A stretch of DNA of 64,000 bases from Rhizorhapis sp. (GTDB lineage: Bacteria > Pseudomonadota > Alphaproteobacteria > Sphingomonadales > Sphingomonadaceae): NCBI RefSeq assembly GCF_035276005.1, contig NZ_DATEMB010000011.1, positions 29,175 through 93,174 of the forward strand, written 5' to 3'. The position numbers and the translations under genes were made by a program. Shown in pieces: positions 13,964 through 33,127 of the stretch (position 1 is its first letter; each line of letters begins with the position of its first letter). The notes under the pieces were generated by a model. That model made no database searches and was not told the DNA's origin. It saw nothing but the letters and a program-made list of their open reading frames with translations.

Positions 13964-14049
13964 TCCCGCGAAAGCAGGAATCCATCTATCCTCTTGTCTC
14001 AACGCTGGATATTGCGGCGCGTTGGATCCCCGCCTTCGCGGGGATGACG
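13958..14049. repeat. REP-like 92-bp palindromic element (cgtcattcccgcgaaagcaggaatcc ... ggatccccgccttcgcggggatgacg)
   Basis: Inverted arms were read directly. The element lies between the OMP stop (14077) and the decahaem gene. Its left arm contains the cat (ATG) at 13961-13963. Confidence 0.85.
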
Positions 14050-14076
14050 AGAAAGAGAAAAGGCGCGCCCAGCCCA

Positions 14077-17993: not shown

Positions 17994-19399
17994 CAGCGCA
18001 GCGCCCTTATGCTTGCCGCCGCGCTGCCCAGCGCTGCCCTGAACTCGCCGGGACGATAGCCATTGGGGTCCTTCACCGCCGCATAGGCGCGGTTGATATT
18101 GGCCCGGATGCTCGCCGCTGCGCCCACCGTCACTTCGCCGGAACTGACGAGCGCATTGAGCAGCGTGTCCACCGCCATCACTGCCTGCACCGAGCCCTCA
18201 TAGTCGGTAAAACGCGGCGCAACGGCGCTTCCGGCAAGCGTGTCGATAATGGCGAATGTCCGATCCCGGCCGAAGGCGGCAGACCCAAAGGCATCGGTCA
18301 GTGCGGCCGCCGATTGCCGCAGCTTGCTGGCGGCGCCGACAGCCGCCGCGCGGTCCTTCGCCAGGGCTGCATGGAAAGCCTGGCTGTCGGCATCGAAACG
18401 GGCGGCCAGTGCCGGGGCGGCTATCTTTGCCGCGGCCGAAAGCATGATCATGTTCTCGTCATTATAGGGCGGCATTCCGCCCGGAATGGACCGCGCCGGA
18501 TTGCTCTCGAACGTCCGCACCGCCTCATCGCTGTCATAGATGCGCCGGTGGCAACTGTGGCAATCGAAGAAGTAGAATTCAGGAAAGACCCCGTCATTGC
18601 CCGTGTCATGGTCGGTATAGAGCGCTAGTGAGCGCTGGAGCGCCATGCTCTGCCCGACTGCCCAGAGCTTCACATTGTTCGTCCGCCCCTTTCTCCGGGC
18701 ATAATCGCCATCCTCATTATGATGCTGCTGCAGCGTGGAAAAGAGATCGAGTTCAAAGCTGATCCGCGGATGCCCCGCCGCCATGATGCGGTGCGTGACG
18801 AACTGCCCGCCATTGGCGCTGCCAAAATGGCAGTCGAGACAGACCGAAGCCCGCGCGCGGGGATCATCCAGCGGGATCATGCCTTTTGCGATATTGGCTG
18901 CATGGGTTGTGCCCACCGCATAATGGCTGGAAATCCATTCGGAAGCCCCGCCATGGCAGCTTTCGCAGCCGACGCCGTCGGAGAGCTGGAACCGGGCGCC
19001 TCGCTTTCCGGCGGGCGCGGGATCGGCATGGCAGCCAAGGCACAGGGGGGACGTGCTTGCGTTTCCGATGCCGAGATTGCGGGCGATCTGGCGGCTGCGC
19101 ATGTTGGAAAGCACCGCAAAGGCCCGGCTATGCGCGCCGCCCGGGGTGGACGGCTCCTGCCAGCGCATCAGTTCATCCTGGCGCACAATCCTGCCGTCGG
19201 CTTCCATGCGGCCATGGCAGGTCGTCCCCGCGCAGGAGGCGACGCCCAGATGAATATTCCTGTCGCCTGAAGTCGCCGCATCAACCGGCGCGGTGGTGGG
19301 AGAAGCCCCGGAGAACAGGATGAAACCCGCCAGGACGAGGAGAATGACAGCCACCGCCCATAAGGTGCGATGCTTGGCTGTGTCTCTTCCCCATGGCAT
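17993..19399 (-). CDS. multihaem c-type cytochrome (4 CXXCH plus 1 CX4CH), membrane-anchored or secreted
   Basis: Haem motifs are CAGTTCH, CLGCH, CESCH, CLDCH and CHSCH. The preferred start is ATG 19399 (MPWGRDTAKHRTLWAVAVILLVLAGFILF, an N-terminal hydrophobic helix). The track start at 19579 would overlap the upstream TpsA gene by 65 nt and encodes an Arg-rich leader. Confidence 0.8.
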   Translation of the reverse strand: MPWGRDTAKHRTLWAVAVILLVLAGFILFSGASPTTAPVDAATSGDRNIHLGVASCAGTTCHGRMEADGRIVRQDELMRWQEPSTPGGAHSRAFAVLSNMRSRQIARNLGIGNASTSPLCLGCHADPAPAGKRGARFQLSDGVGCESCHGGASEWISSHYAVGTTHAANIAKGMIPLDDPRARASVCLDCHFGSANGGQFVTHRIMAAGHPRISFELDLFSTLQQHHNEDGDYARRKGRTNNVKLWAVGQSMALQRSLALYTDHDTGNDGVFPEFYFFDCHSCHRRIYDSDEAVRTFESNPARSIPGGMPPYNDENMIMLSAAAKIAAPALAARFDADSQAFHAALAKDRAAAVGAASKLRQSAAALTDAFGSAAFGRDRTFAIIDTLAGSAVAPRFTDYEGSVQAVMAVDTLLNALVSSGEVTVGAAASIRANINRAYAAVKDPNGYRPGEFRAALGSAAASIRALR

Positions 19400-19514
19400 T
19401 GTTCGTTGATCCCCCCTGACCGCTGCGTTGTGCTTATCGGCCCCTTGTGAGTGCCTATTGCCGGGCCAAGCCATTGCTTTCAAGCCTTTTGGCCTTTCCC
19501 TAAGGTCAAACCTG

Positions 19515-22500
19515 TCAGGGTTCCGCGCAGCCCGCCGCCTCGCCGCCGGTTTCGCAGGCCGGCATCCACAGATCGTCATTGCCGGCGCCCGTTACGGGCT
19601 CATCGATCAGCGGTGGATAACCGAAGGGTTCGAAGTCCTTCAATTCCACCACCATGGTCGGGAAAAGGTCCGACCCGGTGCCGCTTTCGCCCGCCTCCAG
19701 GGGTTCCAGGATCTCGTCATGAGGCGGTGGGCTAAGGCCGTCGTCGACAAAGGTGACGGGCCCGCAAAGCGATGGATTGGCGATAAAACAGCCGTTAATC
19801 GTTGAGCGAGGATCGTAACTCCCGTCCGTCGTGGCCAGCGGGATCACATCCGCGCCTGTTATGAAGCTGCCCCCTCCCACCAGACGGCCATTGATGGCGA
19901 TACGTGCCGTGTCGCTGGCCGTGGTGATGTCCAAGGTGTTGGCGGTAAAGCCACGTCTGTCGGATACCGCATCCGATGCGCCGAGATTCTGCACATAAAG
20001 ACCGTTTACCACGTCAAAGCTGATCGTGCCGGCCCTCAACGCCCCTTCATCCAGGATTATCCCGTCATTCAGGGAAAGCCGCTGATTAATGGCTCCGATA
20101 CCGGCGGCTCCTGCTACATCGGCTATGGCGGCGGCTGTTGCGACGATCACATCATCCGAGGCCAGCCGCAGCGTTCCGGTAAGCGCGCCATTGGCATTGC
20201 GCATGTCGACACTGCCTTGACCAGCTATGACTTCAAGTGCGTCGCCCGCACTGATGTCGAACAGGTTCCCGGCATTGAAATCGTTAAGCGTGACAGCGCC
20301 AATGACCCGCAACTTGCCCGGAGTGGAGATTGACAGGATGCCGCTGGGGCCGAGATTGCCGCCGCTGCCCGCACCTAACGTGAAGCTGTCGACGATCACG
20401 TCCGGGGCTCTGGAAGACCCCACGGAGGCGGTGCTTTGAGAGGCAAGTTGCGGACCGGTTATGCTGATCAGGTTCGAGAATAGTTGCAGGATTTCGGCTG
20501 CTGACAAGCTGTAACCGCTGCTATTGCCGGTCCCGCCGATATAGGTCCGGCGGCTGTCGTCATTGTTCGTCAGTTCCAGCGTCACTGTGCCTGACCGGGA
20601 ACCGATCTGCCCTCCCGATCCGATAATGAGATCGTTTGAGGCAATGGCGATGTTGGTGCCGCTAAGCAGTCCGTCGACCGTAACGGCGCCCATGGCATTG
20701 ATGTCAATGACCGGAGCCGTAACAGTCGTGACCTTCACGTCGCCAAGGCTGGTGTAATAAAAACCGGATGAAGCGTTGGCGGCGGGTCCAAAGCCTGTGC
20801 CGGTCAAACTGCCGGAAATGGCCAATCCGCCCCCGGAACCGGCCGTGTCGCTGACTTCCATGCGGCCGGAACGAATGGTGGTGCCTGTGCCGCTGACGTT
20901 GAAGCTCAGATTTCCCACGCTGCGCGCACCTGTGGGAGCGGCCGTGCCGCCGTTGCTGAACCGCGTAGTGCCGCCAGTCCCGTTGCCAACCGTCCCGGCG
21001 AGGCCGCTGCCTGCCGCGCCTGCCGCGCCGCCAATGCCCTGCGCTTCCAGGGACAAGGTGGGGAAGTCATAGCTCGCACCCTGCGCGTCGAACGCCGCTG
21101 AACCGCCCGTGCCGTCGCCGCCGGACCCCGCATTGCCAAAGCCGAAGCTGTCGCCGCCGGCGCCGCCTTCGCCACTGGCGAGAATTTCCAGGGAAGTTGC
21201 AGTGACGCTGGCGCCGGCATTCAGGGCAACAGCCGCTGTGCCGCCAAATCCATTGCCTCCCGATGTCGCATCGCTGTCTGACACCTGATCCGTGTCCCCG
21301 CCAAGGCCATAGGCGTGGACGAAAATGTCTCCCGCATTCAGCGTGCCGCTGGCTACCATCAGTTGCGACGTTCCGCCTGTGCCATTTCCGCCAGCGGCCA
21401 TGAGGTTGCCGGGGCTGCTCGGCGATCTTGCGAAGCCGCCGGTGCCCAGTGTCGAAAGGGCGAGCATGCCCGTGACATCCGCAAATCCGCCATTGACGTT
21501 GAAGGTGGCCGTCCCGCCAAACCCGTCGCCTGCGGTAAAGGCGGTGGCGCCGGTGCTTTCCCCGCCCTCTCCGCCCAGACCGACCGCGCCAAGCATGATC
21601 GATTGTGCACTCAGCAGACCACCCAGCACATCGGCACGGACAGAGCCGCCCCTGCCGGTGCCGCCATTGCCACTGCCGAAATAATCGCCGGGAATGGGCA
21701 AGCCATAGCCATCGGCGTGGACGTCGAGATTGCCGAAGGTCATCGCGGCGCTGTTGGCGGTGCCCGGCAATAGCTGAAGCAGGACCGTGCCGCCGGTCCC
21801 ATCACCCGCCATGCCGCCGGTCATCTCATACCCGCCAAAGCCATCGGCCGATAGGAACAAGTCGCCGTCCGATGCGAATATTCCGTCCTGGGCCGTCATC
21901 GTGATCGTGCCGCCGATGCCTCTTCCGCCGACAAAGCCCTGGCCGCCCCTTGCATTGGCGGAGATATCGCAAGTTCCGTTCGCGCAGCCGGTGAGAGCGA
22001 ACTGGCCCAGTCCGCTTACCGCGATATTGACCGTGCCCCCCGTGGCGTTTCCGGAAGTGCCGCTGGTATCGGCATCGCCGCCGCTGGCCTCAGCGTTGAT
22101 GAACATTGTACCTGAGCTGAGGGTGCCGCCATTGACGCTGATCTCAGCATTTCCGCCTGTGGCGTTGCCGCCGTTGAGAGAGGTGATGGAGGTCGAGAAT
22201 TGCTGCCCTGCCGACACATCCATTTGGATGTCGCTGGTGGTGATGCTGCCGCCGGTCATGGCGATGCGAACCGTGCCGCCGCTCGCGGTTCCTGAGCTGA
22301 GACCGCCAAGGCCCGCCCTCGCGGTCGAGAACAGCTCTATGTTTCCCGCCGAGATGCTGCCGCCATTGGTGCGGATTTCAGCGGTGCCGCCGGTTGCGCT
22401 GCCGCCGGTTCCTCCGGCGGTGAAATTGTCGAGGCCCACAGCGCTGGCGCCGACCGTCAAGGCGCCGCCGACGGTGACCTGGCCCGAACCATCGGCATAG

Positions 22501-23771
22501 AGGGCCGCGATTCCGCCGATGGCGCCAAGCCCTGCATCGAGCGACAGGTTGGCATCGGCATCAATGGTTTCGCCATTGTCGGCGCCGACGGTGATCGACG
22601 TTGCCGCCTTGAAGTTCGCGTTCTGATTGAAGGTGACGGTTCCCGAAGGCACCGGATTGATCGTGATCGACCCTGTTGCACGACCATCTACGGCAGAAAC
22701 GAAGCCGGTGTCGCTCACATTACCGATGGAAATATTGGCTGCTGCGCTGGTGCTGCTATTGGGCGTGCCCAGCGACTGCCCAGAGAGGATGTCGTGCCCG
22801 GCGGACAATATGACCGCACTGTCCTGCGTCGCGGCGACCGCTGCGGGAGTATAGCCGAAATCCCCCGAAAGAAGCATGGTAAGTGCGCTGTTCTTCGGCA
22901 CAGCCGCAAGGAAGGCGCGCTGCGGCCCGGCGTCGGGCGTCAGGTTGGTCGTGCCAGTATGGACCACACCATTGGCGTCGTCGGTGCCGGTGGTGATGGC
23001 GATGTCGAAAAGGCCGCTATTGATCGTGATCGTCGCTGCCTCCGCACCCACATAGGCGACAGAGCCGTTGACGTTGACCGTACCGAATTGCTGTATCGAG
23101 GGGGCGACGAGGGCGACATAGCTTCCCGGCGCACTGACATTGATCTGCGCGCCAGGCTGGATGGTGACGTGCGAAGAGCTGTTGGGCGTCCCGGTGAAAT
23201 TGATGCTCCCGCTGGAGCCAAAACCAGCTGTGTCGTCGATGTCGCTGCTGGTCAGGACAAGTGAGCCGACGTCGAAAACGGCCGTCGGTCCTGCGATGAT
23301 GCCGCCGGGCGAATAGAACCACACATTGCCGACAGGGAAATTATTGGCGCCAAGCTGCGTCGTCACAGTTCCGTTGAAGGCGACCGGGCGGCTTGTCACG
23401 GGATTGCCGCTGCCGTCGACCGGCAGGATACGGTTCAATACGGTATAGCCCGAAAGCCCGGCAGAAGAATTGTCCACATAAAGGACCGAATTGGTTGTCG
23501 GCAGGAAATCGATGGTGCCGGTGCCGCCGGTATCGGTTGGTGTCCAGTCGATGACCACCTCGCTCGTATCCACCGTAATGGTATCGCTGGTCGCGCCCTG
23601 GACGATGGAGGCCGAGCCGGAGCCGGAGACGACAGCGCCGGTGCCCTGGAAACCGCTTGCTCCGGCCTGCGGGACCTGCGCCGCCGCGGCGAGCACGATG
23701 GCAATAAGGGCGCATCCCTGAAGCAGCGGTGTTTTGAGGCGAGGGGCGTTGTGAATGCTGGACTTCATCAT
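19515..23771 (-). CDS. TpsA-type exoprotein: filamentous haemagglutinin N-terminal (TPS) domain plus Gly-rich beta-helical repeats
   Basis: It has a signal peptide (LLQGCALIAIVLAAAAQVPQAGA). The TPS-like block is VIDWTPTD...VLNRILP...VWFYSPGGIIAGPTAVFDVGSLVLTS. About 12 repeats with a GGT(A/V)x(I/F) core follow. ATG 23771 forms a TGATG overlap with the TpsB stop. The track start is GTG 23783. Confidence 0.85.
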   Translation of the reverse strand: MMKSSIHNAPRLKTPLLQGCALIAIVLAAAAQVPQAGASGFQGTGAVVSGSGSASIVQGATSDTITVDTSEVVIDWTPTDTGGTGTIDFLPTTNSVLYVDNSSAGLSGYTVLNRILPVDGSGNPVTSRPVAFNGTVTTQLGANNFPVGNVWFYSPGGIIAGPTAVFDVGSLVLTSSDIDDTAGFGSSGSINFTGTPNSSSHVTIQPGAQINVSAPGSYVALVAPSIQQFGTVNVNGSVAYVGAEAATITINSGLFDIAITTGTDDANGVVHTGTTNLTPDAGPQRAFLAAVPKNSALTMLLSGDFGYTPAAVAATQDSAVILSAGHDILSGQSLGTPNSSTSAAANISIGNVSDTGFVSAVDGRATGSITINPVPSGTVTFNQNANFKAATSITVGADNGETIDADANLSLDAGLGAIGGIAALYADGSGQVTVGGALTVGASAVGLDNFTAGGTGGSATGGTAEIRTNGGSISAGNIELFSTARAGLGGLSSGTASGGTVRIAMTGGSITTSDIQMDVSAGQQFSTSITSLNGGNATGGNAEISVNGGTLSSGTMFINAEASGGDADTSGTSGNATGGTVNIAVSGLGQFALTGCANGTCDISANARGGQGFVGGRGIGGTITMTAQDGIFASDGDLFLSADGFGGYEMTGGMAGDGTGGTVLLQLLPGTANSAAMTFGNLDVHADGYGLPIPGDYFGSGNGGTGRGGSVRADVLGGLLSAQSIMLGAVGLGGEGGESTGATAFTAGDGFGGTATFNVNGGFADVTGMLALSTLGTGGFARSPSSPGNLMAAGGNGTGGTSQLMVASGTLNAGDIFVHAYGLGGDTDQVSDSDATSGGNGFGGTAAVALNAGASVTATSLEILASGEGGAGGDSFGFGNAGSGGDGTGGSAAFDAQGASYDFPTLSLEAQGIGGAAGAAGSGLAGTVGNGTGGTTRFSNGGTAAPTGARSVGNLSFNVSGTGTTIRSGRMEVSDTAGSGGGLAISGSLTGTGFGPAANASSGFYYTSLGDVKVTTVTAPVIDINAMGAVTVDGLLSGTNIAIASNDLIIGSGGQIGSRSGTVTLELTNNDDSRRTYIGGTGNSSGYSLSAAEILQLFSNLISITGPQLASQSTASVGSSRAPDVIVDSFTLGAGSGGNLGPSGILSISTPGKLRVIGAVTLNDFNAGNLFDISAGDALEVIAGQGSVDMRNANGALTGTLRLASDDVIVATAAAIADVAGAAGIGAINQRLSLNDGIILDEGALRAGTISFDVVNGLYVQNLGASDAVSDRRGFTANTLDITTASDTARIAINGRLVGGGSFITGADVIPLATTDGSYDPRSTINGCFIANPSLCGPVTFVDDGLSPPPHDEILEPLEAGESGTGSDLFPTMVVELKDFEPFGYPPLIDEPVTGAGNDDLWMPACETGGEAAGCAEP

Positions 23772-25504
23772 CACTGCCTCCACGGAACAAGCTTGGTGGT
23801 CAGGGACAGCAGCAGCCGGGGGTCGCCCCTTCGGTTGAGGAAACCCGCGCGCTCCATCGGAACGGCGAGGGTCAGGTCCACCCGAGCGTGATTGCCCCAG
23901 GCCCCCCGAATGCCGGCGCCCGCCGAAAAAAGCTTCTGCGGGTCAAGGCCCACAAAGGCGCTGTCTTCATTCCAGAGCCAGCCGCCGTCGAAAAACAGGA
24001 AAGGCTGCACCGCAATCGCGTTCGCGCCCTTCGGCATGATGCTGCCATAGTGGACCTCCGCTTGAAAGCCGACGCCACTGTCGCCAATGATCGTGCCGGG
24101 ATCATAGCCGCGCCCGAAGCTGTAATTGCCCGCCGACATCTCCTCATAGCTGAGCAGCGGGTCGGAACTGTACTGGAAGCGGGGCGAAAGGCTGAAGGTG
24201 ATCTTGGGTATTGGACGGAATTCGCCATATGCCGCCGCCCTCAAGACCAGCGCCGTGGGGTCTGCCTCCAGCTTGCTGATGCGGTCGCCGCTATTGCTGG
24301 CGCCGAAAATGGAGAGGCCATGGCGTGCTTCCACCGATCCGCCCAAGCGCCAGCGCGGTTCGGCGCCGCTATAGCCGATCGTGCTGCCCAGACTGGCGCG
24401 GTCGATCATGTCATAGTCGACACGGGCATAGAGGACGCGCAGCTTGTCCTCGCTCAGCGTCACCGCACCGAAATCCACTTTCTGATCGACCAGCTCGAAA
24501 CCGACCGTGCCGAGCAAATTCTGCGACTGCCTGCGGATCAGGGGATAGCTGGCGGCAAGGCTCGCGATCAATGTGGCCGAATCAAGGTCGATGCCGATGT
24601 CTGGCCGGGTCCAGGCATAGGTGAAGTCGCCTGCCAAGCGCAGGCCGTCATGGCCGATGGCGAAGCTGTGGCCGGCTTGTAGCACCGTCTGCTCCGAAAT
24701 TTCGGCGGTGTTGAACAGGCTGAGCGTCGTCATGTCGCCAAGCCCGGTCAGATCATTGATCTGCACCCGCGCCAGCCCGCCCCAGCGGCCGGTGTCCCGT
24801 GATCCGTAATTCTGAATATTGGCATCGACCTGGAATTGCTGGCGGGTGACGCGAACCTCGCCGATGACTTCGCCCGGCGCGGCATTGGCGGGACGCAGGG
24901 TCAGCCGCACATCATAGCCGGGAAGATCCCCGGCAAGCAGCAAATGACGCTCCGCCTCATATATGTTGAAGAGCGGCCGGTCCTTGATCGCTTCCAGATG
25001 GGCCGCGATCAGTTCCTCGCTCCGCCCCGCATCGCCCCGCACCTGAACAGCGACGAGCTTTGCAAGCAGCACGTCGAAACGGACCGTGCCGCCCTTTTCG
25101 ATCCGCTGCGGGGGAACCTGAACGGCAGCCAGATAGCCTTCGCGGCGCAAGATCGTCGCCGCATTGTCCCGGATCTCGCATAGCTCGGCGATGGGCATGT
25201 CACGGCCAACATGGCCTTCCCAGGCGGGGCGGAGCAACTCGGGCGAGAGGCCCTGCAGTCCTTCGAATTGAACGGCGGAAATCGAAACGGTCAGATTGGC
25301 ATATTGCGGGTCCGCGAGGGGGCAGGGCGCGCGCTCCACATCGCCCTCCACCGTGAGCCGCGTGGGGCGCTGCGGTTCAGTGACGGGAGCACGGCCGCGT
25401 TCGATTTCTTCACGGGTCGGCGCACCGGTTGTCTGCGCCATAAGATTGGCGGGCAGCAGCGCTGAGCCCATCAGAACAAATGCCAACGCCCGGCCAAAGC
25501 CCAT
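23771..25504 (-). CDS. ShlB/FhaC/HecB-family two-partner secretion outer-membrane transporter (TpsB)
   Basis: It has a signal peptide (MGFGRALAFVLMGSALLPANLMAQ) and POTRA-like regions (VSISAVQFEGLQGLS, GYLAAVQVPPQRIEKGGTVRFDV). A C-terminal barrel follows. The position immediately upstream of a TPS-domain gene fits this call. ATG 25504 follows aaggggacgga. The track start is 25531. Confidence 0.85.
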   Translation of the reverse strand: MGFGRALAFVLMGSALLPANLMAQTTGAPTREEIERGRAPVTEPQRPTRLTVEGDVERAPCPLADPQYANLTVSISAVQFEGLQGLSPELLRPAWEGHVGRDMPIAELCEIRDNAATILRREGYLAAVQVPPQRIEKGGTVRFDVLLAKLVAVQVRGDAGRSEELIAAHLEAIKDRPLFNIYEAERHLLLAGDLPGYDVRLTLRPANAAPGEVIGEVRVTRQQFQVDANIQNYGSRDTGRWGGLARVQINDLTGLGDMTTLSLFNTAEISEQTVLQAGHSFAIGHDGLRLAGDFTYAWTRPDIGIDLDSATLIASLAASYPLIRRQSQNLLGTVGFELVDQKVDFGAVTLSEDKLRVLYARVDYDMIDRASLGSTIGYSGAEPRWRLGGSVEARHGLSIFGASNSGDRISKLEADPTALVLRAAAYGEFRPIPKITFSLSPRFQYSSDPLLSYEEMSAGNYSFGRGYDPGTIIGDSGVGFQAEVHYGSIMPKGANAIAVQPFLFFDGGWLWNEDSAFVGLDPQKLFSAGAGIRGAWGNHARVDLTLAVPMERAGFLNRRGDPRLLLSLTTKLVPWRQ

Positions 25505-25728
25505 CTTCCGTCCCCTTGTTGCCCGCCGCATTTTTGCGGCCGGACCTATGCCCCCGAATCCTCCCGCGAAAGGAGGATGATAATTGATCTTTGCAATCAG
25601 TTTTCGACTTTGGAGTTACCGCTTCCGTACGGTCTTTTCTATTTCCCGCCTGCTATCAGCGATGCCCCTCTGGTGCAAGCAAGGAGGCTGAATTCCATTG
25701 CTTTTTCATGCGCAAAGTCTTGATGCAC

Positions 25729-26499
25729 CTACCCCTCTGGCGCGGGCTGCGGATCGGGCAACGCGACCGTGTCCACCAGAAGGTTGAGCTGCGCATCGCA
25801 TTTGCGGCTGATCAGCATGGAGGCCATGCTCTCCAGGCCCTCGTCAGTGGCGTTCATGATCGAAAAGGCGATCTTCACCGGTCTTTGAAGCCCCGGCCAG
25901 CTTAAAGTGTAGCTGCTTCCCTCCGTCACCGGCAACGCCGCTGGCCAGGTCGCGCGAAACTGTCCCTTTTCAAAGGGAATGGCCGCGCTCTTGCCGCTCT
26001 TCTCGTCGCGGGCGGTGACCGTCAGCGCCTGGGTAAGATCAGGCCGCCAAAGCTGCACATTATTGGTGTCCGCTATGCAGACGTTGGAGCTTTGGCTGAT
26101 GTCGACATACCAAAGATTGGGGCTGCGCGGCATCCGGCCTTCGTCCGCTCCACCACGTACGGCCCCCGTTCGGGCCCGCCGGACTCGCTGCGTTCCAAGA
26201 AGCCCGGAAAGGCTGTTGCGCGTGTCGCTGACACCGGAAGAGGCGGCGCTTGTATTGAAGCGCCCCGGCCCTTTCAATGTACGCGTGCCGCGTCCGTCAA
26301 GGATGGTCAGCACGTCGCCTGCCTGCAAGGTCAGGACGCTGTTGTCCGCTATCTTCCTGCCCGGAGGATAGCTGCCCGCCGAGGGGCCGCCCGACCTTAC
26401 GACGATGGTTTCGGCAAGCGCAGCGGGGACAGTTAGCACGGCCATCGCCATTGCCGCGGATTTGAAGGCGTTGATGCGGAACTTCCTAGTCAAGAACAT
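25729..26499 (-). CDS. periplasmic FecR-like domain protein
   Basis: The start MFLTRKFRINAFKSAAMAMAVLTVPAALA-ET (ATG 26499) gives a signal peptide. The segment IVVRSGGPSAGSYPPGRKIADNSVLTLQAGDVLTILDGRGTRTLKGPGRF resembles the FecR sensor fold. The C-terminal half was not recognised. The gene overlaps the cyclase gene by 14 nt. Confidence 0.6.
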   Translation of the reverse strand: MFLTRKFRINAFKSAAMAMAVLTVPAALAETIVVRSGGPSAGSYPPGRKIADNSVLTLQAGDVLTILDGRGTRTLKGPGRFNTSAASSGVSDTRNSLSGLLGTQRVRRARTGAVRGGADEGRMPRSPNLWYVDISQSSNVCIADTNNVQLWRPDLTQALTVTARDEKSGKSAAIPFEKGQFRATWPAALPVTEGSSYTLSWPGLQRPVKIAFSIMNATDEGLESMASMLISRKCDAQLNLLVDTVALPDPQPAPEG

Positions 26500-28468
26500 A
26501 TTCCCCTCCAGCCCCGCCATTTTCCAGGCGGTATAGCAGATTGGCGAGGGCAGCGTCATTGCTATGCCTGCCGGCATAGGCCGAAAGGGCTGCAACGGCG
26601 CTACCCCTATTGGTTGATAACTGATTCACCATGTCCCGTATGTGATGCAGGTCACTTGTGTCGAGATCGGGTCTGGGTTCAAAAATGTCGACGGGCGTCG
26701 CTCGGCCGCGAAGCACGACCCGCCCCATCGGCCGCCACCAATCGAGCCCTGAACGTTCCGCCGCCTCCCGGCTTGCGATGACGCAGGAGCCGAGCTGCTT
26801 GTTGGCGGCCTCCAGCCGGGCGGCGGTGTTCATGCTGTCGCCCAGCGCGGTGTACTGGATGCGGCCCTCTCCGCCGAAATTGCCGACAATCGCTTCGCCA
26901 TAGTGCAGGCCGACCCGGGTGCGGCCAATCGGGGGAACGCCCTCGGGAATGTCCTGGCGGAAGGCTTCGCCCGCCTGCCACATGGCATAGGCGGCCCTTG
27001 CCGCGCGCTCCCCGTCATCGGAGCGGGAGATCGGTGCCCCCCAGAAAGCCACGACGGCATCGCCAACAAATTTGTCGATTGTGCCGCCATATTCCAGCAC
27101 GACATCGCTCAGCATGTCGAGGTAACGATTGAGGAGGCTTGCCACCATTTCAGGCGGAATGGCGTGGGATAATTTGGTGAAGCCTTCAAGATCGGTGAAC
27201 ACTACGAAGATATTGCGCTTTTCCCCATGCAGGGCGAGGCGGTCGGGATCTTCCAATATTTCCTGCGCTATGTCGCGGGGCAGATATTTGCCAAGCGCTG
27301 CCTGAGCGAATTTCCGCTGTTCCGACCCCACCGCCCGCGCCGCCGAACCGGCCGAGACATAGGCGATAAACCAGCCCAGCGCCCAGCCGCTGCCCGGCAG
27401 GAACTGCGTGTCGGTGCCATGGGCCTGGAGATAGAAGGGAAGGGCAATGAAAAAGGCGAGCTGGACGAGTATCAGCGGGGCAATTTTCCAGTTCTTTCCT
27501 TCGATGAGGCTGGTCAAGATGCCCGCCACGGCCACCAGAATGGCGGCGGTCCATAGCGCCCAGGGCGAGGTCTGATTGGGGCGGTAGCCGTCAAGATATT
27601 GGGCAAGGATATTGGCATGGACCTCCAGGCCGATCATCCGTTCGCCGGTGATGGCTGTCATTGGGGTTTCGAACTGGTCGAGATCGACAATATCGCCCCC
27701 GATGAGCACATGGCGGCCCCGTACCTGATCGGCGAAGGCGGCGGCCGTATCCGGATTGGCGAACAGATCGATCGGGAAGGAGGCGATAACGGGGCGGTCC
27801 TGCGATAGTGGCAGGCGGTAACGGATGGAACCCGTATAGTCCTGAAACCCTCCACCATTTTCCGCCATGGCGAGCGCCAGCAACGGCGGCAGGTGAGCAG
27901 GCTGCACTGGCCAGCTCCTCGCGACGCCGTCCCCGTCTACCTCCAGCCTGATGCTCGCAGCCTTGACGCCGGTGCCCTTGAGGCGGCGCATGAACCCGTC
28001 GAGGAACTGCTGCTGGCGATATTCGATATTGCCCGCATTGGTGGCGATATCGGCATAGGCGAGGAAGGTCGGCGTCTTCATCGCTGCGAAAGCGGATAGC
28101 AGTTGCTGGTCCTCATCCTGCGGCTGATCGATGAGAATATCGATACCAATGGCTTTCGCACCCATGGCATCGATATTCGCGAGCGCCCGCGCCAAGGTCG
28201 CCCGGTCGAGCGGTGATCGTTTCTTCGTTTCGATGAGGGTGTCGTCGGTATAGACGATCATCACGATCCGGTCGTCCTGCTCGACATGCGGAGCCGTTGC
28301 CGTCATGCGCAGGTCGTAGAAGGCGCGCTCCGCCTGGCCGACAAGCGGCAGATACCAGCTATAGCGCGCCACCAGCACGCCCAGCAGAACGAACAGCAAG
28401 GTTCCCGCAAGCCGGACAGTGCCGATATTGCGCAGCAGCTTGTCTGGCTGAGCGAGGAAGGATTTCAC
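26486..28468 (-). CDS. CHASE2 sensor domain-containing class III adenylate/guanylate cyclase
   Basis: The N-terminal TM helix and CHASE2-like periplasmic region (RIVMIVYTDDTLIETKKRSPLDRATLARALANIDAMGAKAIGIDILID) are followed by three or more TM helices. The cyclase core is NIFVVFTDLEGFTKLS...FVGDAVVAFWGAP...RVGLHYGEAIVGNFGG...YTALGDSMNTAARLE. The GTG start forms a GTGA overlap with the CHAT stop. Confidence 0.9.
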   Translation of the reverse strand: MKSFLAQPDKLLRNIGTVRLAGTLLFVLLGVLVARYSWYLPLVGQAERAFYDLRMTATAPHVEQDDRIVMIVYTDDTLIETKKRSPLDRATLARALANIDAMGAKAIGIDILIDQPQDEDQQLLSAFAAMKTPTFLAYADIATNAGNIEYRQQQFLDGFMRRLKGTGVKAASIRLEVDGDGVARSWPVQPAHLPPLLALAMAENGGGFQDYTGSIRYRLPLSQDRPVIASFPIDLFANPDTAAAFADQVRGRHVLIGGDIVDLDQFETPMTAITGERMIGLEVHANILAQYLDGYRPNQTSPWALWTAAILVAVAGILTSLIEGKNWKIAPLILVQLAFFIALPFYLQAHGTDTQFLPGSGWALGWFIAYVSAGSAARAVGSEQRKFAQAALGKYLPRDIAQEILEDPDRLALHGEKRNIFVVFTDLEGFTKLSHAIPPEMVASLLNRYLDMLSDVVLEYGGTIDKFVGDAVVAFWGAPISRSDDGERAARAAYAMWQAGEAFRQDIPEGVPPIGRTRVGLHYGEAIVGNFGGEGRIQYTALGDSMNTAARLEAANKQLGSCVIASREAAERSGLDWWRPMGRVVLRGRATPVDIFEPRPDLDTSDLHHIRDMVNQLSTNRGSAVAALSAYAGRHSNDAALANLLYRLENGGAGGEYVLD

Positions 28469-31400
28469 CGCGAAAGCAGGGGACGCGCGCCGTCGCCTAC
28501 AATCGCAAACCCTGACCAGTAAAAGGGATGCGAGGTTTCCGCACTGTCCATCAGCGGCACCTGCGCCTTTTGCAGTGCTGTCCCGATGCTGTCCGCCGTC
28601 CCCTGGCCGAAGAGGCCGCCGATCAGCCGTTCCGTGGCATTATAATCGTCCGGCGCTGGCCAGTGGCTTGCGATGATTGCCCGGCCGCCTGCGCCGATGA
28701 AAGCGCGCACCAGACCATCAAGCGCGGTTCCGCCGCCGGTGCCAAGGCCCGCCGCACGCGTTGCTTCCTTGCTGGCCTGGCCCGCAGTGTCGCAGGCGGA
28801 GAGGATGACGAGATCGGCATCCAGCTTCAGGTCGAAGATTTCGGCAAAGTTCAGCAAGCCATCGGAATTGCCTGTGCCGAAGGAAGTGAGCAGTGCTGGC
28901 CGTGCCGGGCATCCGCTGCGTGGCGGCGTGACAAGGCCATGGGTGGCGAAATGCAATACGCGATAGTCGCGAAGGTCGCTCCGCGCCATGATCGCGCTGT
29001 CGGTGAAGGCAGTGCCAGTCACTATTTCGGTGCCGGAGGGTCCCAATATGCTGGCGGCTTGGCGAAGTTCTGTTGCGGCAATGGGCCGGTTCCATTCATC
29101 CAGCGGCCATTGGCATTGCTCATCCGGCGCACCGGCCGCGGACCGGGTAAGGGCGGCAGTCGTGACCTTTGCGACCGGCGCATTCTGTCCCAGCCCCAAA
29201 TAGCTCCGCGTGCCCCGCGAAGAACTGGCAAGGCGTGCGTCGCGAAAACCGCGCACCGAAAGCGCGGTGCTGATCGCCCGGCCACGGCCAAGCCATTTTA
29301 TGCCGCGAAAATCGAACTCATCCGCATTAGGGTCCTCGAGACGCTGCAGATAGGCATCCACGCCCGCCTGCTCGGTCACAAGCAGGTTCGCCGGCAGGCG
29401 CAGCATCGCTCCGTCAGGCTCGAAGATCAGGTGCGTCACGGCTTCAAGCCGCTCGCCGACTGGCCCGAACAGGTCAAGATAGATAGAGCGGGCCAGCTCC
29501 ACGTCAAAAGGATAGGTCGTCTGCACGCCGCCAACGACGGTGGAGATTGTCTCCCGCAGCGCATTGACCTTGCGCTCCAGTTCCGTGCTGGAAATGGGAA
29601 GGCGATAGCCGGTCGCGCCTGCGCCATCGGCATAGACCGCGAACAGCGCATTGCCCGCCCGCACCATCTTCAGATAGGCTTCGCCCGGCTTCAGCGCGGA
29701 GCGGAGTTCGTCCAATGTAACCGCCTCGCGCGATACGGCGCGATACTGCGGATAGGCCGCAAGGGCCGCCTGCGTCTCCACCTGCTGCCTGCCGAGATCC
29801 TCGATCTCGTTTCGCGCAGCCTCGATGAGCGGCGCTGCGCTCGCATCCTGTTGCCCGGTCTGGATGAGCTGGGCCAACTCGATGCGCCGGCGCTCAATGT
29901 CGCGCGAAAGGGAAACCGATTGCCGGAAGAGGCGTGCGGCCTCCCCGTCGCCTGCCTGCAGTTCGCGCGACAGAACTTCCATCGTGTCGGCGGCCCCCGG
30001 ACGAACAAGAAGCTGGCTTGCGAGGAACAGGCTGCCGCTGCTCTCGGGATGAGCTGGAATGTCAGCGGCGAGCAGTTCGAAATAGGGTTGGAGCTGGTTG
30101 GCAAGGCCAGTGACGCTGGCGCGATTGGCGGCGGTGCTGCCTACGATCTCGCGATAAAGGGCCAACGCCTCGTCCTTGCGCTGCCGCCGAACGAGGAAAG
30201 CGGCCAGACGCGCCCGCGCCCCGTTCATCGCTGCGGTTTCAGGATATTGCGTCGACAGCAGCTTCAATGCTTCCCGGAGCATGTTTTCGGCCGCTCCGGC
30301 ATTGCCCTCCGCCTCATGGGTCAGTGCCATTTCCGCCAGCAACTGGGCGCGAAGACGCGTGATCGAAGTCACCCGTCCGCTGCGAATGACCATGGCATCC
30401 GAAAGAGCCTTCTCCAGCATCGCCCGCGCCTCGCGCGGCTGGCCCTTCAGGCGCAGCAATGTACCCCTGAGCTGGCTTGCCTGAGCGTCGATGATTGCCG
30501 CCCGTTCATTCGGGGTAAGGCGTGTATCCTGGGAGACGCCCAGCGCCGTCGCACCGGTGGCACTGCTGTTGATCTCTGCTGCCAGTTGCGGACTGAGTTC
30601 GATTGTATCGCTCGAGGCTAGCCTATTAACGCCTGTGGGCAGAACCGACCGGTCCAGAATAGCTGCGGCTTCGCCATATTCGCGCTGGTTAAGCTTGTGC
30701 ATCGCTTGGAAATTGCGGCGCAGGCGAAGCTGGACCCGGTCCCGCGTGGCGATTTTCCCCGCCTGGGCAAAGAGCGCATCGGCCTGGCCGAATTCGCTCA
30801 GATTGGAAAGCTGAAGTGCCCGGTTGACAAGATATTCATGCTGACGCGCTTCCCGCTCGGCGGGTGAGAGTTTCGCTGCGTCACTCTCGTCAAATTGCTC
30901 CTGCAAGCTGTCGAAAAATTCGGCGGCTTCGGCATAATTGCCGCTATTGTTGCGGCGATAGCCTTCCGCCAACGATGTCTCCGGGTCCAATGTTCCCGCC
31001 TGAAGGCGTGCAAAAGCCGCCGGATCGTCGGTTCCACTGATGGCGATGGCGATCTGTCCATCGACAGGTTTGTCCGCCACGATGGTGCGGAGCGCCAGTT
31101 GCAAGGCGCTGTCATAGCTGGCAAGGCCCTGGGCGACATAGGTCACCTTGCCTGCATGATATTGGTGGATCACATAGCCAAGCCTTGCGGCTGTCAACTG
31201 ACATTGGCGAGACGTGACCGCGCCAACATCCGCGACCTGTACATTTGCCGGGGCGCCGCAGCTTAGATCCTGGCGGCGGGCGGCGGCCAATCTCGCCTCC
31301 AGCCCGCCCCCACCATCGCGCAGGGCGTAAAGCTGGCCGACTGGCTGGGCCGCGTCGCGGCAGACCAGCGTCCAGGCCCGGTCGAACATGCCTTGGACTG

Positions 31401-31560
31401 CCGGATCGGTAGCGCGGCTTTGGGCCTGACACAGCGCGCCTCCGCCGCTGCCCAGGCGGAAGCTGTCCGCCAGGCTGGGCCTTAATTCCTGCGCTGGCAG
31501 CGTTCCGCTGCTAAAGGCGGTGGCAGCCATCAAGACTGGAAAAATCAGGCGCAATCGCAC
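28465..31560 (-). CDS. secreted TPR-repeat / CHAT-domain (caspase-like) protease
   Basis: Signal peptide is MRLRLIFPVLMAATAFSSGTLPAQE. The N-terminal domain is Cys-rich and the middle is long and helical/TPR-like. The C-terminal CHAT block has a His/Cys dyad in the contexts YRVLHFATHGLV and ADLVILSACDTAGQ. Confidence 0.85.
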   Translation of the reverse strand: MRLRLIFPVLMAATAFSSGTLPAQELRPSLADSFRLGSGGGALCQAQSRATDPAVQGMFDRAWTLVCRDAAQPVGQLYALRDGGGGLEARLAAARRQDLSCGAPANVQVADVGAVTSRQCQLTAARLGYVIHQYHAGKVTYVAQGLASYDSALQLALRTIVADKPVDGQIAIAISGTDDPAAFARLQAGTLDPETSLAEGYRRNNSGNYAEAAEFFDSLQEQFDESDAAKLSPAEREARQHEYLVNRALQLSNLSEFGQADALFAQAGKIATRDRVQLRLRRNFQAMHKLNQREYGEAAAILDRSVLPTGVNRLASSDTIELSPQLAAEINSSATGATALGVSQDTRLTPNERAAIIDAQASQLRGTLLRLKGQPREARAMLEKALSDAMVIRSGRVTSITRLRAQLLAEMALTHEAEGNAGAAENMLREALKLLSTQYPETAAMNGARARLAAFLVRRQRKDEALALYREIVGSTAANRASVTGLANQLQPYFELLAADIPAHPESSGSLFLASQLLVRPGAADTMEVLSRELQAGDGEAARLFRQSVSLSRDIERRRIELAQLIQTGQQDASAAPLIEAARNEIEDLGRQQVETQAALAAYPQYRAVSREAVTLDELRSALKPGEAYLKMVRAGNALFAVYADGAGATGYRLPISSTELERKVNALRETISTVVGGVQTTYPFDVELARSIYLDLFGPVGERLEAVTHLIFEPDGAMLRLPANLLVTEQAGVDAYLQRLEDPNADEFDFRGIKWLGRGRAISTALSVRGFRDARLASSSRGTRSYLGLGQNAPVAKVTTAALTRSAAGAPDEQCQWPLDEWNRPIAATELRQAASILGPSGTEIVTGTAFTDSAIMARSDLRDYRVLHFATHGLVTPPRSGCPARPALLTSFGTGNSDGLLNFAEIFDLKLDADLVILSACDTAGQASKEATRAAGLGTGGGTALDGLVRAFIGAGGRAIIASHWPAPDDYNATERLIGGLFGQGTADSIGTALQKAQVPLMDSAETSHPFYWSGFAIVGDGARPLLSR

Positions 31561-31819
31561 AAATGTCCCCCCATCGCTGCGGACGTCCGCCCTTACGGCG
31601 TCCTCATATTTCTTTTATCCAGCGACCCATGTGGTGCTACAATTTCGACGCTTTGCGGGCAAGACCTTAGATACTGAACTTGCAAAAGAAAGACAGCGGA
31701 AGGGGGGCCGGCGATTTGCTGTTTTGAAACGCCCCGCGTTGAAGGGTAAAGAGCAGGTTCATCCGTTCCATGTCACTAAACGGGCGCATCCCGGCCTGTT
31801 TTTTCGCAAAGGTGCCCCA

Positions 31820-32194
31820 ATGAAGAAGATCCTGAGTTTCGCCGCGACTGCAGGAATGCTGGTTTCCGCTCCGGCCTTTGCTCATCCCAAATTGGTCAAC
31901 GCCACGCCCGCGGCAAATGCGACGGTGAAATCCACCGGGAGCATAGAGCTGCAATTCAATGAAAAGCTGGTTCCGGCCTTCTCCGGCGCTGACGTGGTGA
32001 TGACCGGAATGCCGGGAACGCCCAATCACGGCCGGATGAAGATGGGTGCCAAGAGCAGCGTTTCGAAGGACGGCAAGACTCTCCTGATCGTTCTGGCAAA
32101 GCCTCTTCCCCGCGGTGACTATCGCGTAAATTGGCGTGTCGTGGCGGACGATACGCATCGGATCACGGGCACGCACACCTTCAAGGTGCGTTGA
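31820..32194 (+). CDS. copC: copper resistance protein CopC
   Basis: MKKILSFAATAGMLVSAPAFA-HPKLVNATPAANATV, with RGDYRVNWRVVADDTHRITGTHTFKV later. The N-terminal His after signal cleavage and the fold motifs are typical of CopC. Confidence 0.88.
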   Translation: MKKILSFAATAGMLVSAPAFAHPKLVNATPAANATVKSTGSIELQFNEKLVPAFSGADVVMTGMPGTPNHGRMKMGAKSSVSKDGKTLLIVLAKPLPRGDYRVNWRVVADDTHRITGTHTFKVR

Positions 32195-32197
32195 CGC

Positions 32198-33127
32198 ATG
32201 GAGGATCCGGCCAGCGTCGGCATCAGATTTCTGCTCTATCTGGACCTGATGCTGCTGTTCGGATTGTCCATGTTTGGCCTTTACGGCCTTCATGGGCCGG
32301 AACGCTCCGACCGTTCGATATTGAAGCTGCGCTTTGGCCTTGTCCTCTTGGCGGTGCTGGGGATTTTTCTGTCGGCCGTTGCGCTGTTTTTGCTCACTGC
32401 CTCAATGGCGGGCCTTCCGCTTACAGAGGTTGATGCCGAATCGGTGACGATGCTTCTCTCTGGAACCAGCGCGGGGGCTGCCTGGACAGCGCGGGTTGTG
32501 GCGCTGGCGATCGCCTTCCTTTTACCCTTGCTGGTCTGGCGGCGGCCATTTTCAGCGCTGACGGGCACTAGCGCAGCCGGGGCCACCGCGCTTGGCACAT
32601 TAGCCTGGACGGGGCATGGCGCTGCGGGTGAGGGGGCGGGCGCTTGGCTCCATCTGATCGCGGACATCGCCCATCTGTTCGCCTCCGGCATTTGGCTAGG
32701 CGCATTGGCGGCTCTCGGCATGCTGGCCTTCAGGCGCGGCACGGATCTTGCCCATGCGGAGCTCACCCGCCGCGCGTTGGAGGATTTTTCGCCGCTGGGG
32801 AGCTGGGCGGTTGCCATATTGGTAATAACCGGGCTGGTGAACAGTTGGTTTCTGATCGGAATCTCCAATATCGGCCAGATGGTCTCTGCCCTTTACGGCC
32901 AACTGCTTGCCGCCAAGCTTGTCCTGTTTTTAGCCATGCTTGGGCTTGCGGCCTTGAACCGCTTCCGCCTGACGCCTGGGGCGGAACTCGCCATTCGCCG
33001 AAGAGACATTTCGGCTGCCGTCGCAGCATTGCGGTGCAGTTTGCTGGCGGAGACTAGTCTTGCGGTGCTGATCCTCGCTCTTGTGGCCTGGCTTGGCATG
33101 CTTTCGCCCCCAGCAGCGGGACCCTAA
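32198..33127 (+). CDS. copD: copper resistance protein CopD (membrane)
   Basis: 309 aa polytopic membrane protein starting 3 nt after copC. It has eight hydrophobic segments and the block HLIADIAHLFASGIWLGAL. Confidence 0.85.
   Translation: MEDPASVGIRFLLYLDLMLLFGLSMFGLYGLHGPERSDRSILKLRFGLVLLAVLGIFLSAVALFLLTASMAGLPLTEVDAESVTMLLSGTSAGAAWTARVVALAIAFLLPLLVWRRPFSALTGTSAAGATALGTLAWTGHGAAGEGAGAWLHLIADIAHLFASGIWLGALAALGMLAFRRGTDLAHAELTRRALEDFSPLGSWAVAILVITGLVNSWFLIGISNIGQMVSALYGQLLAAKLVLFLAMLGLAALNRFRLTPGAELAIRRRDISAAVAALRCSLLAETSLAVLILALVAWLGMLSPPAAGP

Follow-up and report, generated by a model that had tools for sequence, protein, structure and literature searches.

A conserved five-gene locus of sphingomonads combining a putatively exported CHAT protease, a CHASE2 adenylate cyclase and a two-partner secretion pair

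A stretch of 64,000 nucleotides from Rhizorhapis sp. (NCBI RefSeq assembly GCF_035276005.1, contig NZ_DATEMB010000011.1, positions 29,175 to 93,174 of the forward strand), hereafter called the window, contains five co-directional minus-strand genes that are predicted to encode, in the order of transcription, a TPR-CHAT protease, a CHASE2 class III adenylate cyclase, a small secreted protein, and the TpsB and TpsA proteins of a two-partner secretion (TPS) pair (Table 1). A preliminary description of this DNA, made from the sequence alone, had seen in these genes one envelope-level sensing and effector system. The gene combination is real and selected, and the cluster consists of two sub-modules: TpsB-TpsA-CHAT on the one hand, and the CHASE2 cyclase plus the small protein on the other.

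The five genes and their products

The genes are tightly packed. The CHAT stop codon and the cyclase start codon share a GTGA, the cyclase and small-protein genes overlap by 14 nt, and tpsB and tpsA share a TGATG; a spacer lies between the small-protein gene and tpsB. Open reading frame (ORF) coordinates and the sequence agree on all these points with the preliminary description, which had placed the five genes on one strand and put the spacer at about 200 nt. Its recognition of a CHAT domain with intact His and Cys contexts, of a Cys-rich N-terminal domain in the same protein, of a CHASE2 cyclase with intact motifs and of TpsB also holds up under the domain searches and alignments given here.

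The first protein is, by domain and catalytic dyad, a CHAT (caspase-fold) peptidase with putative proteolytic activity. The match to the CHAT domain extends across the full Pfam model (E = 6e-48), and none of 45 aligned homologues, the approximately 30%-identical copy from Niveispirillum (Rhodospirillales) included, departs from the dyad residues His874 (in HFATHG) and Cys923 (in LSACDTAG). The CHAT domain had no match among PDB sequences. The layout of the protein is a putative signal peptide (residues ~1-23), an N-terminal domain with four Cys, a helical TPR-like middle and the C-terminal CHAT domain. The four N-terminal Cys and one further Cys pair are conserved in the homologues, as would be expected of disulfides in an exported protein. 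Signal peptides of the module proteins were assessed by inspection and hydropathy. Of 107 database CHAT homologues, 85 have a hydrophobic N-terminal segment that would fit a Sec signal peptide; at most of the N-termini inspected, an A-x-A-Q type site closes this segment and a conserved mature end, RPSLxDSFRLGSGGGxLCQAQS, follows. The TPR part of the preliminary assignment is less secure in the window protein itself, where all TPR matches are under the Pfam thresholds, but TPR matches are on record for many close homologues, and the NCBI name is "CHAT domain-containing tetratricopeptide repeat protein". An ENA contig encoding a 100% identical CHAT (P0121) is annotated as 1054 aa, 23 residues longer than the longest ATG/GTG/TTG ORF of the window; this reflects a different start call, and the signal peptide fits the shorter form.

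The second protein is read as a CHASE2-type receptor adenylate cyclase with a CyaK/CyaD-like architecture. It matches the Pfam CHASE2 (E = 3.8e-32) and Guanylate_cyc (E = 7e-13) models, and hydropathy suggests an N-terminal transmembrane segment, a periplasmic CHASE2 domain, a transmembrane cluster at residues ~300-395 and then the cyclase domain. All six class III catalytic residues are present in an alignment with the adenylate cyclases CyaC and CyaB: the two metal-binding aspartates (D of FTDLEGFT and D of DKFVGDA), the substrate-recognizing Lys/Thr pair (K of DKFVGDA and T of YTALGD) and the Asn/Arg transition-state pair (N and R of NTAARLE). The Lys/Thr pair, together with CyaB and CyaC as the nearest solved relatives of the domain, suggests ATP as the substrate and hence cAMP as the product. 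The Pfam description of CHASE2, as quoted in PMC5192318, gives no known ligand. On a plasmid of Azospirillum ramasamyi (L088), a related CHASE2 cyclase gene is flanked by those for an OmpA-family protein, a SUMF1-family protein and two DUF4384 proteins; an extracytoplasmic function sigma/anti-sigma pair is encoded some genes further upstream, and downstream there is a Crp/Fnr gene. From one lineage to another, then, CHASE2 cyclases seem to have taken on different envelope partners.

The third protein is one of a large family (1658 representatives at 50% identity), which we define here as an unnamed two-domain periplasmic protein family. It is composed of a putative signal peptide, an N-terminal beta domain of ~50 aa, a linker, and a C-terminal beta-sandwich with two helices, the latter domain containing a Cys pair (C141 and C234) that is invariant in the homologue alignment. 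In the linker there is a near-invariant basic motif, RARTGAVRG, surrounded by sequence that AlphaFold predicts to be disordered (pLDDT <50). This motif, which is retained even in loci without CHAT, is a candidate binding or cleavage site. Three family members of ~460 aa (P0355, P0391 and P0412) have both domains doubled in an N-N-C-C arrangement, which indicates that the two halves of the small protein are separable domains. The preliminary description had called this protein FecR-like, an identity that we reject. The protein has no Pfam or NCBIfam match at E<=10; in a Pfam scan, none of 43 diverse family members matched FecR (PF04773); hhalign gave a probability of 0.3% against NsrA and 0.1% against a B. 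thailandensis FecR protein; and a Foldseek search of the PDB with the model of the small protein returned only weak Ig-like or cupredoxin-like beta-sandwich matches (E >1e-3). RefSeq annotates both the small protein and TpsA as hypothetical.

By their domains and operon adjacency, tpsB and tpsA are a two-partner secretion (type Vb) pair, with export of TpsA predicted. TpsB is composed of POTRA plus a ShlB/FhaC barrel (Pfam ShlB, 5.2e-23; POTRA_2, 1.2e-6), its orthologue is named as ShlB/FhaC/HecB family in RefSeq, and its FGRGYD sequence contains an RGY that by eye is similar to the conserved loop-6 motif of TpsB proteins. Pfam alone misses the TpsA of the preliminary description: the single sequence has no Pfam match even at E<=10 and reaches only 0.07 against TIGR01901. 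The TPS domain is nevertheless supported by a homologue profile that matches the solved TPS domains of HxuA, HMW1 and EtpA (E 4.5e-9 to 2e-5), by an AlphaFold model of residues 1-373 (pLDDT 87) for which the top Foldseek matches are the secretion domains of EtpA, HxuA, HMW1, FHA and HpmA, and by PF05860, which is present in many TpsA homologues of 40-50% identity.

TpsA consists of a putative signal peptide, the TPS domain, a Gly-rich beta-helical middle and a C-terminal domain. Homologues range from 1405 to >2700 aa through expansion of the Gly-rich middle. Both the TPS domain and the final ~390 residues are conserved and align co-linearly, the latter in 23 of 24 complete TpsAs. At the extreme C-terminus we define a new element, a tail motif with the near-invariant consensus PLIDEPVTGAGN[ED]DLW in 28 sequences (27 loci and the window), which in the window reads PLIDEPVTGAGNDDLW. 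In 24 of the 28 it is followed by a CxnC tail, of which the window version is the terminal Cys pair MPACETGGEAAGCAEP. The tail is specific enough to pull 80 related loci from metagenomes, and the TPR-CHAT protease may dock on it or cleave it. The preliminary description does not contain this feature.

Table 1. Coordinates of the five-gene module, its elements and its neighbours in the window
Feature	Position	Strand	Size	Basis or remark
TPR-CHAT protease gene	28465-31560	minus	1031 aa	ORF call and Pfam
CHAT domain	28492-29499	minus	residues 688-1023	Pfam
CHAT dyad, His874 codon	28939-28941	minus		HFATHG, residue 870
CHAT dyad, Cys923 codon	28792-28794	minus		LSACDTAG, residue 920
CHAT stop/cyclase start overlap	28465-28468	minus		ORF coordinates and sequence
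CHASE2 class III adenylate cyclase gene (predicted)	26486-28468	minus	660 aa	ORF call and Pfam
CHASE2 domain	27518-28384	minus	residues 29-317	Pfam
Cyclase domain	~26669-27220	minus	from residue 417	Pfam
Cyclase/small-protein gene overlap	26486-26499	minus	14 nt	ORF coordinates and sequence
Small secreted protein gene	25729-26499	minus	256 aa	homologue-supported ATG at 26499, where homologues begin; ORF extendable to 26595 (288 aa, longest form)
RARTGAVRG linker motif	26152-26178	minus		homologue alignment
Spacer, small-protein gene to tpsB	25532-25728	minus	197 nt	sequence
tpsB gene	23771-25531	minus	586 aa	ORF call and Pfam
tpsB/tpsA overlap	23769-23773	minus		ORF coordinates and sequence
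tpsA gene	19515-23771	minus	1418 aa	ATG at 23771; longest ORF to 23783 (1422 aa)
TPS domain of TpsA	~22752-23645	minus
TpsA conserved C-terminal domain	19518-20702	minus	~390 aa	conservation profile
TpsA C-terminal motif	19566-19613	minus	residues 1391-1406 of the 1422-aa ORF	alignment
Divergent intergenic region 5' of CHAT gene	31561-31821		~260 nt	faces plus-strand copC-copD
copC-copD pair	31822-33127	plus		Pfam
Antisense ORF inside CHAT gene	28528-30621	plus	697 aa	unsupported
Cytochrome c554-like multihaem protein gene	17993-19579	minus
HbpS-like haem-binding protein gene	16026-17993	minus
Gene for protein of no named family	14077-16029	minus	650 aa
LVIVD-repeat plus multihaem protein gene	10001-14077	minus	1358 aa

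Conservation of the gene cluster

The linkage of the five genes was followed in two independent locus sets, one collected through the small protein (one genome per species) and the other through the TpsA C-terminal domain (metagenomes). The small-protein scan yielded 80 sphingomonad loci, 54 of them with enough flanking DNA. The complete CHAT-cyclase-small-TpsB-TpsA series is present in the same order in 43 of the 54; ten have the cyclase and small protein only, and one (L079) has TpsB-TpsA-CHAT and the small protein with no cyclase in view. Throughout these loci CHAT and the TPS pair are either both present or both missing, and the small-protein gene is beside the cyclase gene in 53. The ten two-gene loci are flanked by unrelated metabolic genes, such as those for a thiamine pyrophosphate (TPP) enzyme, an aldehyde dehydrogenase, APH kinases and malate synthase, so that we reject the idea of substitute partner genes there. 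From the metagenomes, 80 loci were obtained through the TpsA tail, and at least 900 nt upstream of TpsB was visible in 51. The small protein is upstream of TpsB in 49 of these, with the cyclase also in view in 43, CHAT is directly upstream in two, and in none is neither found. Where at least ~200 nt was in view upstream of the cyclase, the CHAT 3' end was visible (3/3 loci).

All five genes are also encoded, in a permuted order and with 28-32% identity, by a megaplasmid of Niveispirillum cyanobacteriorum (Rhodospirillales): TpsB, a TpsA with MBG repeats, TPR-CHAT, a homologue of the small protein (hhalign probability 99.3%) and a CHASE2 cyclase. The Sphingomonas parapaucimobilis plasmid NZ_CP155750.1 (~260.6-274.5 kb; L086/L087) has a paralogous TpsB-TpsA-CHAT triad followed by a gene for a CPBP intramembrane protease, with no cyclase and no small protein at the locus; its TpsA has a related tail, PIIGANNEELL, and the conserved Cys pair. 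Genes of a type VI secretion cluster surround this triad. On two metagenome contigs (L125 and L131), CHAT (52-53% identical) is encoded immediately 5' of TpsB-TpsA, and neither the cyclase nor the small protein intervenes. It is because the sub-modules are found both apart and together that the cluster resolves into two.

In all 43 complete loci the CHAT/cyclase, cyclase/small-protein and TpsB/TpsA junctions are tightly spaced, the last overlapping or nearly so, and a spacer of at least ~100 nt precedes tpsB. Base composition is even throughout the module region of the window, and the closest relatives of every module protein are in the Sphingomonadaceae, with Rhizorhapis nearest (70-87% aa identity).

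The co-occurrence beyond chance that the preliminary description had proposed as a check is borne out by the 43/54 species loci, by the small protein or CHAT in 51/51 metagenome loci, and by the permuted Niveispirillum copy. The proposal of one envelope module is right in that the five genes are conserved together, but the module is not monolithic, each sub-module being found alone as well. That description had also been aware of no functional characterization of the combination, and our literature searches found no account joining CHASE2 with "CHAT domain" (with or without FecR), or "CHAT domain" with "two-partner secretion". We found no description of this five-gene combination in the literature searched; each part is of a known kind.

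A gene of the Crp/Fnr family is present just upstream of CHAT in Sphingobium herbicidovorans pMSHV (L084, 4032-4670), with homologues in four to five other Sphingobium loci, and a gene for a cyclic nucleoside monophosphate (cNMP)-binding protein comes right after the small-protein gene in one two-gene locus (L072, 10644-11303). These are possible cAMP receptors for the system. We rejected the Crp/Fnr regulator as a sixth component: it is upstream in only five other scanned loci and is not beside the window module.

Precedents and candidate mechanisms

Two characterized systems, neither of them considered in the preliminary description, resemble parts of the module. The Pseudomonas aeruginosa TpsA adhesin CdrA is anchored in CdrB by a C-terminal "cysteine hook" (PMC5422565, PMC11898600), and the periplasmic cysteine protease LapG cuts the periplasmic CdrA tail to release the adhesin under cyclic-nucleotide control (PMC5422565, PMC11898600, PMC4694147). 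Like the CdrA/CdrB-LapG system, the window encodes a TpsB plus a long repetitive TpsA with a C-terminal Cys pair, for which cleavage is here conjectural, and a cyclic nucleotide would form part of the circuit, here through a cyclase gene in the cluster. Unlike LapG, the protease is a caspase-fold TPR-CHAT protein and is encoded in the same gene string; unlike CdrA, the TpsA has the PLIDEPVTGAGN[ED]DLW tail motif, and the TAAG cleavage site is absent from the window TpsA; and unlike LapD, which is a c-di-GMP receptor, the nucleotide enzyme is predicted to be an outward-facing CHASE2 adenylate cyclase. With a CHAT protease, a CHASE2 cyclase and no TAAG, the module is not a LapG/LapD adhesin-release system, and only the C-terminal Cys pair is common to both. 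A 2017 review of TPS systems names LapG, SphB1 and "yet unidentified proteases" and makes no mention of CHAT or cyclases (PMC5422565).

The second precedent is that of the Sinorhizobium meliloti CHASE2 adenylate cyclases CyaK, CyaD1 and CyaD2, which respond to a signal of protein nature via the outer-membrane protein NsrA, itself required for signaling by the CHASE2 cyclases (PMC7529298, PMC13001267). The 1219-aa NsrA combines FecR, TPR and a barrel in one protein, and cyaK overlaps its gene. Like CyaK, the window cyclase (27% identical) is an inner-membrane CHASE2 class III cyclase by prediction and is translationally coupled to the gene of a secreted partner, and TPR repeats belong to the apparatus in both cases. 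What is one protein in NsrA is here represented by a separate small protein, TPR on the CHAT protease and the TpsB barrel; no sequence similarity to NsrA was found in the window small protein, TpsB or CHAT. The Sinorhizobium system, for its part, has neither a CHAT protease nor a TpsA.

FecR-domain proteins also adjoin CHASE2 kinases, as in the Burkholderia "BiofilmReg" system and P. aeruginosa PA4035/36 (PMC5192318). As in those operons, the CHASE2 sensor gene of the window is immediately beside the gene of a secreted partner, and this adjacency supports the notion that CHASE2 domains work with a periplasmic co-sensor. The kinase operons have a LysM-FecR partner, a histidine kinase with a response regulator as output, and no TPS or protease, whereas the partner here has no FecR similarity and the predicted output is cAMP. 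TPR-CHAT proteases elsewhere include Csx29/Craspase of type III-E CRISPR systems, HetF and the separase-like caspase-fold enzymes, which are cytoplasmic and regulated by RNA or the cell cycle; to our knowledge, the CHAT proteases described so far are cytoplasmic and act in defense or development. The window protein shares with TPR-CHAT proteases generally the order of TPR then CHAT and the His/Cys dyad in canonical HG and AC contexts, and differs from those just named in its putative conserved Sec signal peptide, its disulfide-type four-Cys N-terminal domain and its envelope partners.

The reading that we consider best, and to which we give a probability a little short of even, is that a TPS unit with a CHAT tail protease is coupled to a sensor unit made up of the CHASE2 cyclase and the small protein. 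In this model TpsB would export a long Gly-rich beta-helical TpsA fibre, the conserved tail of which (PLIDEPVTGAGN[ED]DLW plus the Cys pair) would stay on the periplasmic side. The TPR region of the Sec-exported TPR-CHAT protease would dock on the tail and the CHAT domain would cut it, so maturing or releasing the fibre much as LapG does with CdrA. The small secreted protein would be the periplasmic partner or co-sensor of the CHASE2 domain of an inner-membrane class IIIb adenylate cyclase, and the cyclase would turn an envelope cue into cytoplasmic cAMP by the same logic as NsrA upstream of CyaK. Because the two units are in one gene string in most sphingomonads, the state of the fibre or protease and cAMP signaling may be coupled, in either direction. 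What we observe are the domain identities, the intact catalytic residues, the apparent export signals and the linkage of the genes; the CHAT substrate, the CHASE2 ligand and the direction of coupling we infer.

Several points weigh against this model. Retention of the TpsA tail in the periplasm is an assumption by analogy. The Niveispirillum TpsA does not have the tail motif although CHAT is present. The physical grouping of the genes, CHAT-cyclase-small protein, then the spacer, then TpsB-TpsA, differs from the grouping by co-occurrence, which puts CHAT with TPS and the cyclase with the small protein. The ten two-gene loci indicate that the sensor pair needs no TPS or CHAT nearby, and in L079 the small protein accompanies CHAT and TPS with no cyclase in view. 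Both locus sets were ascertained through module members, and the linked fraction of all CHAT, CHASE2 and TPS genes is not derivable from them.

The module offers a way to test the roles of CHASE2 sensors and secreted CHAT proteases. For CHASE2, a sensor domain widespread in bacteria, the only worked example that we found is the S. meliloti NsrA/Cya system, and the sphingomonad loci provide a widely conserved, tractable case in culturable bacteria of a CHASE2 cyclase with a fixed periplasmic partner. They also provide a caspase-fold protease, apparently exported, whose gene is tied to that of a two-partner-secreted fibre, and the tail motif of this fibre is sharply defined. Possible gains are a ligand or co-receptor for CHASE2, a new class of TPS accessory protease in addition to LapG, SphB1 and CtpA, and a link between cAMP and the display of surface fibres.

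An alternative that we regard as unlikely is the model of the preliminary description, a proteolytic relay in which a product of CHAT, cut from the TpsA tail or from the small protein at RARTGAVRG, switches on the CHASE2 cyclase, either alone or with the small protein, with cAMP reporting secretion or engagement of the fibre. The presence of all five genes in one string (43/54 species loci, and 49/51 metagenome loci with the small protein upstream of TpsB), the translational coupling of CHAT, cyclase and small protein, the company that the small protein keeps with CHAT and TPS in L079 and Niveispirillum, and a conserved motif within a disordered linker are all consistent with it, as are the protein nature of the signal for the S. 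meliloti CHASE2 cyclases (PMC13001267) and the existence of caspase-fold/CHASE2 domain fusions in cyanobacteria (PMC2853523). In the ten loci where the sensor pair has no CHAT or TPS nearby, however, the ligand would have to be another, so that such a relay could not be general, and RARTGAVRG is conserved in those loci too. TPS-CHAT triads without the cyclase, in S. parapaucimobilis and in L125/L131, also argue against it, and cleavage of either TpsA or the small protein is hypothetical.

We give no greater chance to the opposite view, that two independent units lie side by side, the sensor serving unrelated cAMP targets or only transcription of neighbouring genes and TpsB-TpsA-CHAT being a separate adhesin system, with adjacency the outcome of shared ancestry and co-regulation rather than of interaction between the proteins. 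Each sub-module does occur alone, the spacer before tpsB is found in all complete loci, the cytochrome c and HbpS neighbours described below are likewise syntenic though outside the module, and Crp/Fnr or cNMP-binding genes are nearby in some loci. This view would not readily account for the position of CHAT, which is upstream of and overlapping the cyclase gene rather than beside tpsBA, for the retention of all five genes, permuted and at ~30% identity, in a different order of the Alphaproteobacteria, or for the small protein or CHAT upstream in all 51 tail-motif loci with enough sequence.

A more speculative reading, to which we attach a still smaller probability, is a self-reporting secretion or adhesion circuit. 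The CHAT protease would cut the PLIDEPVTGAGN[ED]DLW tail and the Cys-looped peptide would be captured by the small protein, or the small protein would itself be clipped, and the product would be the CHASE2 ligand that elicits cAMP synthesis. Were this so, CHASE2 would have its first ligand and mechanism, and a bacterial caspase-fold protease its first extracytoplasmic signaling role.

Control from the inside outward seems improbable. By analogy with LapD-LapG, a precedent for such control of a protease (PMC5231407), the periplasmic face of CHASE2, the small protein or both would sequester or inhibit TPR-CHAT, and the cyclase would report or set the state of the complex. The translational coupling of the three genes is typical of complex-forming proteins, and proteins dock through TPR domains. 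The cyclase has kept all its catalytic residues, however, which argues for a real enzymatic output and not a degenerate receptor like LapD; Pfam finds no cyclic-nucleotide-binding domain in the cyclase protein, and the sensor pair occurs without CHAT.

CHAT proteases occur in defense systems such as Craspase, PycC models in PADLOC match the cyclase domain (best 3.4e-32) and TpsA proteins can carry toxins (PMC5422565), but an anti-phage or toxin system, with a Pycsar-like cyclase and a CHAT effector or a contact-dependent inhibition (CDI)-type TpsA toxin and the small protein as its immunity protein, is very improbable, given that PADLOC is blank for CHAT, the small protein, TpsB and TpsA, that CHAT and the small protein have apparent export signals, that the Lys/Thr pair and best solved relatives point to adenylate cyclases, and that in loci without TPS the small protein is still paired with the cyclase. 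The PycC matches reflect class III homology, and no gene for a cNMP-binding effector is beside the cyclase in the window, so that we do not assign the module to Pycsar. Nor do we assign TpsA to the CDI or polymorphic toxins: VENN, ELYN and three similar pre-toxin strings are all absent from it, and its C-terminus is conserved rather than polymorphic.

Noncoding regions and neighbouring genes

The spacer before tpsB does not fold as RNA above shuffled sequences (z=-1.2), its counts of promoter and terminator signals are at chance level, and there is no Rfam match in 15-33 kb of the window, spacer included. The module promoter probably lies in the intergenic region 5' of the CHAT gene, where consensus promoter matches did not exceed chance. 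On the other side of this region is the divergent copper-resistance pair copC-copD, both members of which are recognized by Pfam. The long plus-strand ORF inside the CHAT gene is unsupported and of the sort that commonly arises antisense to genes in high-GC DNA.

Downstream of tpsA there are four further co-directional minus-strand genes (10001-19579), the ends of which overlap or abut (Table 1). We rejected the cytochrome c and HbpS genes as module members. They stay near the cyclase/small-protein pair in loci without TPS and CHAT, at a variable distance, and the two together look like conserved synteny or a separate redox cluster.

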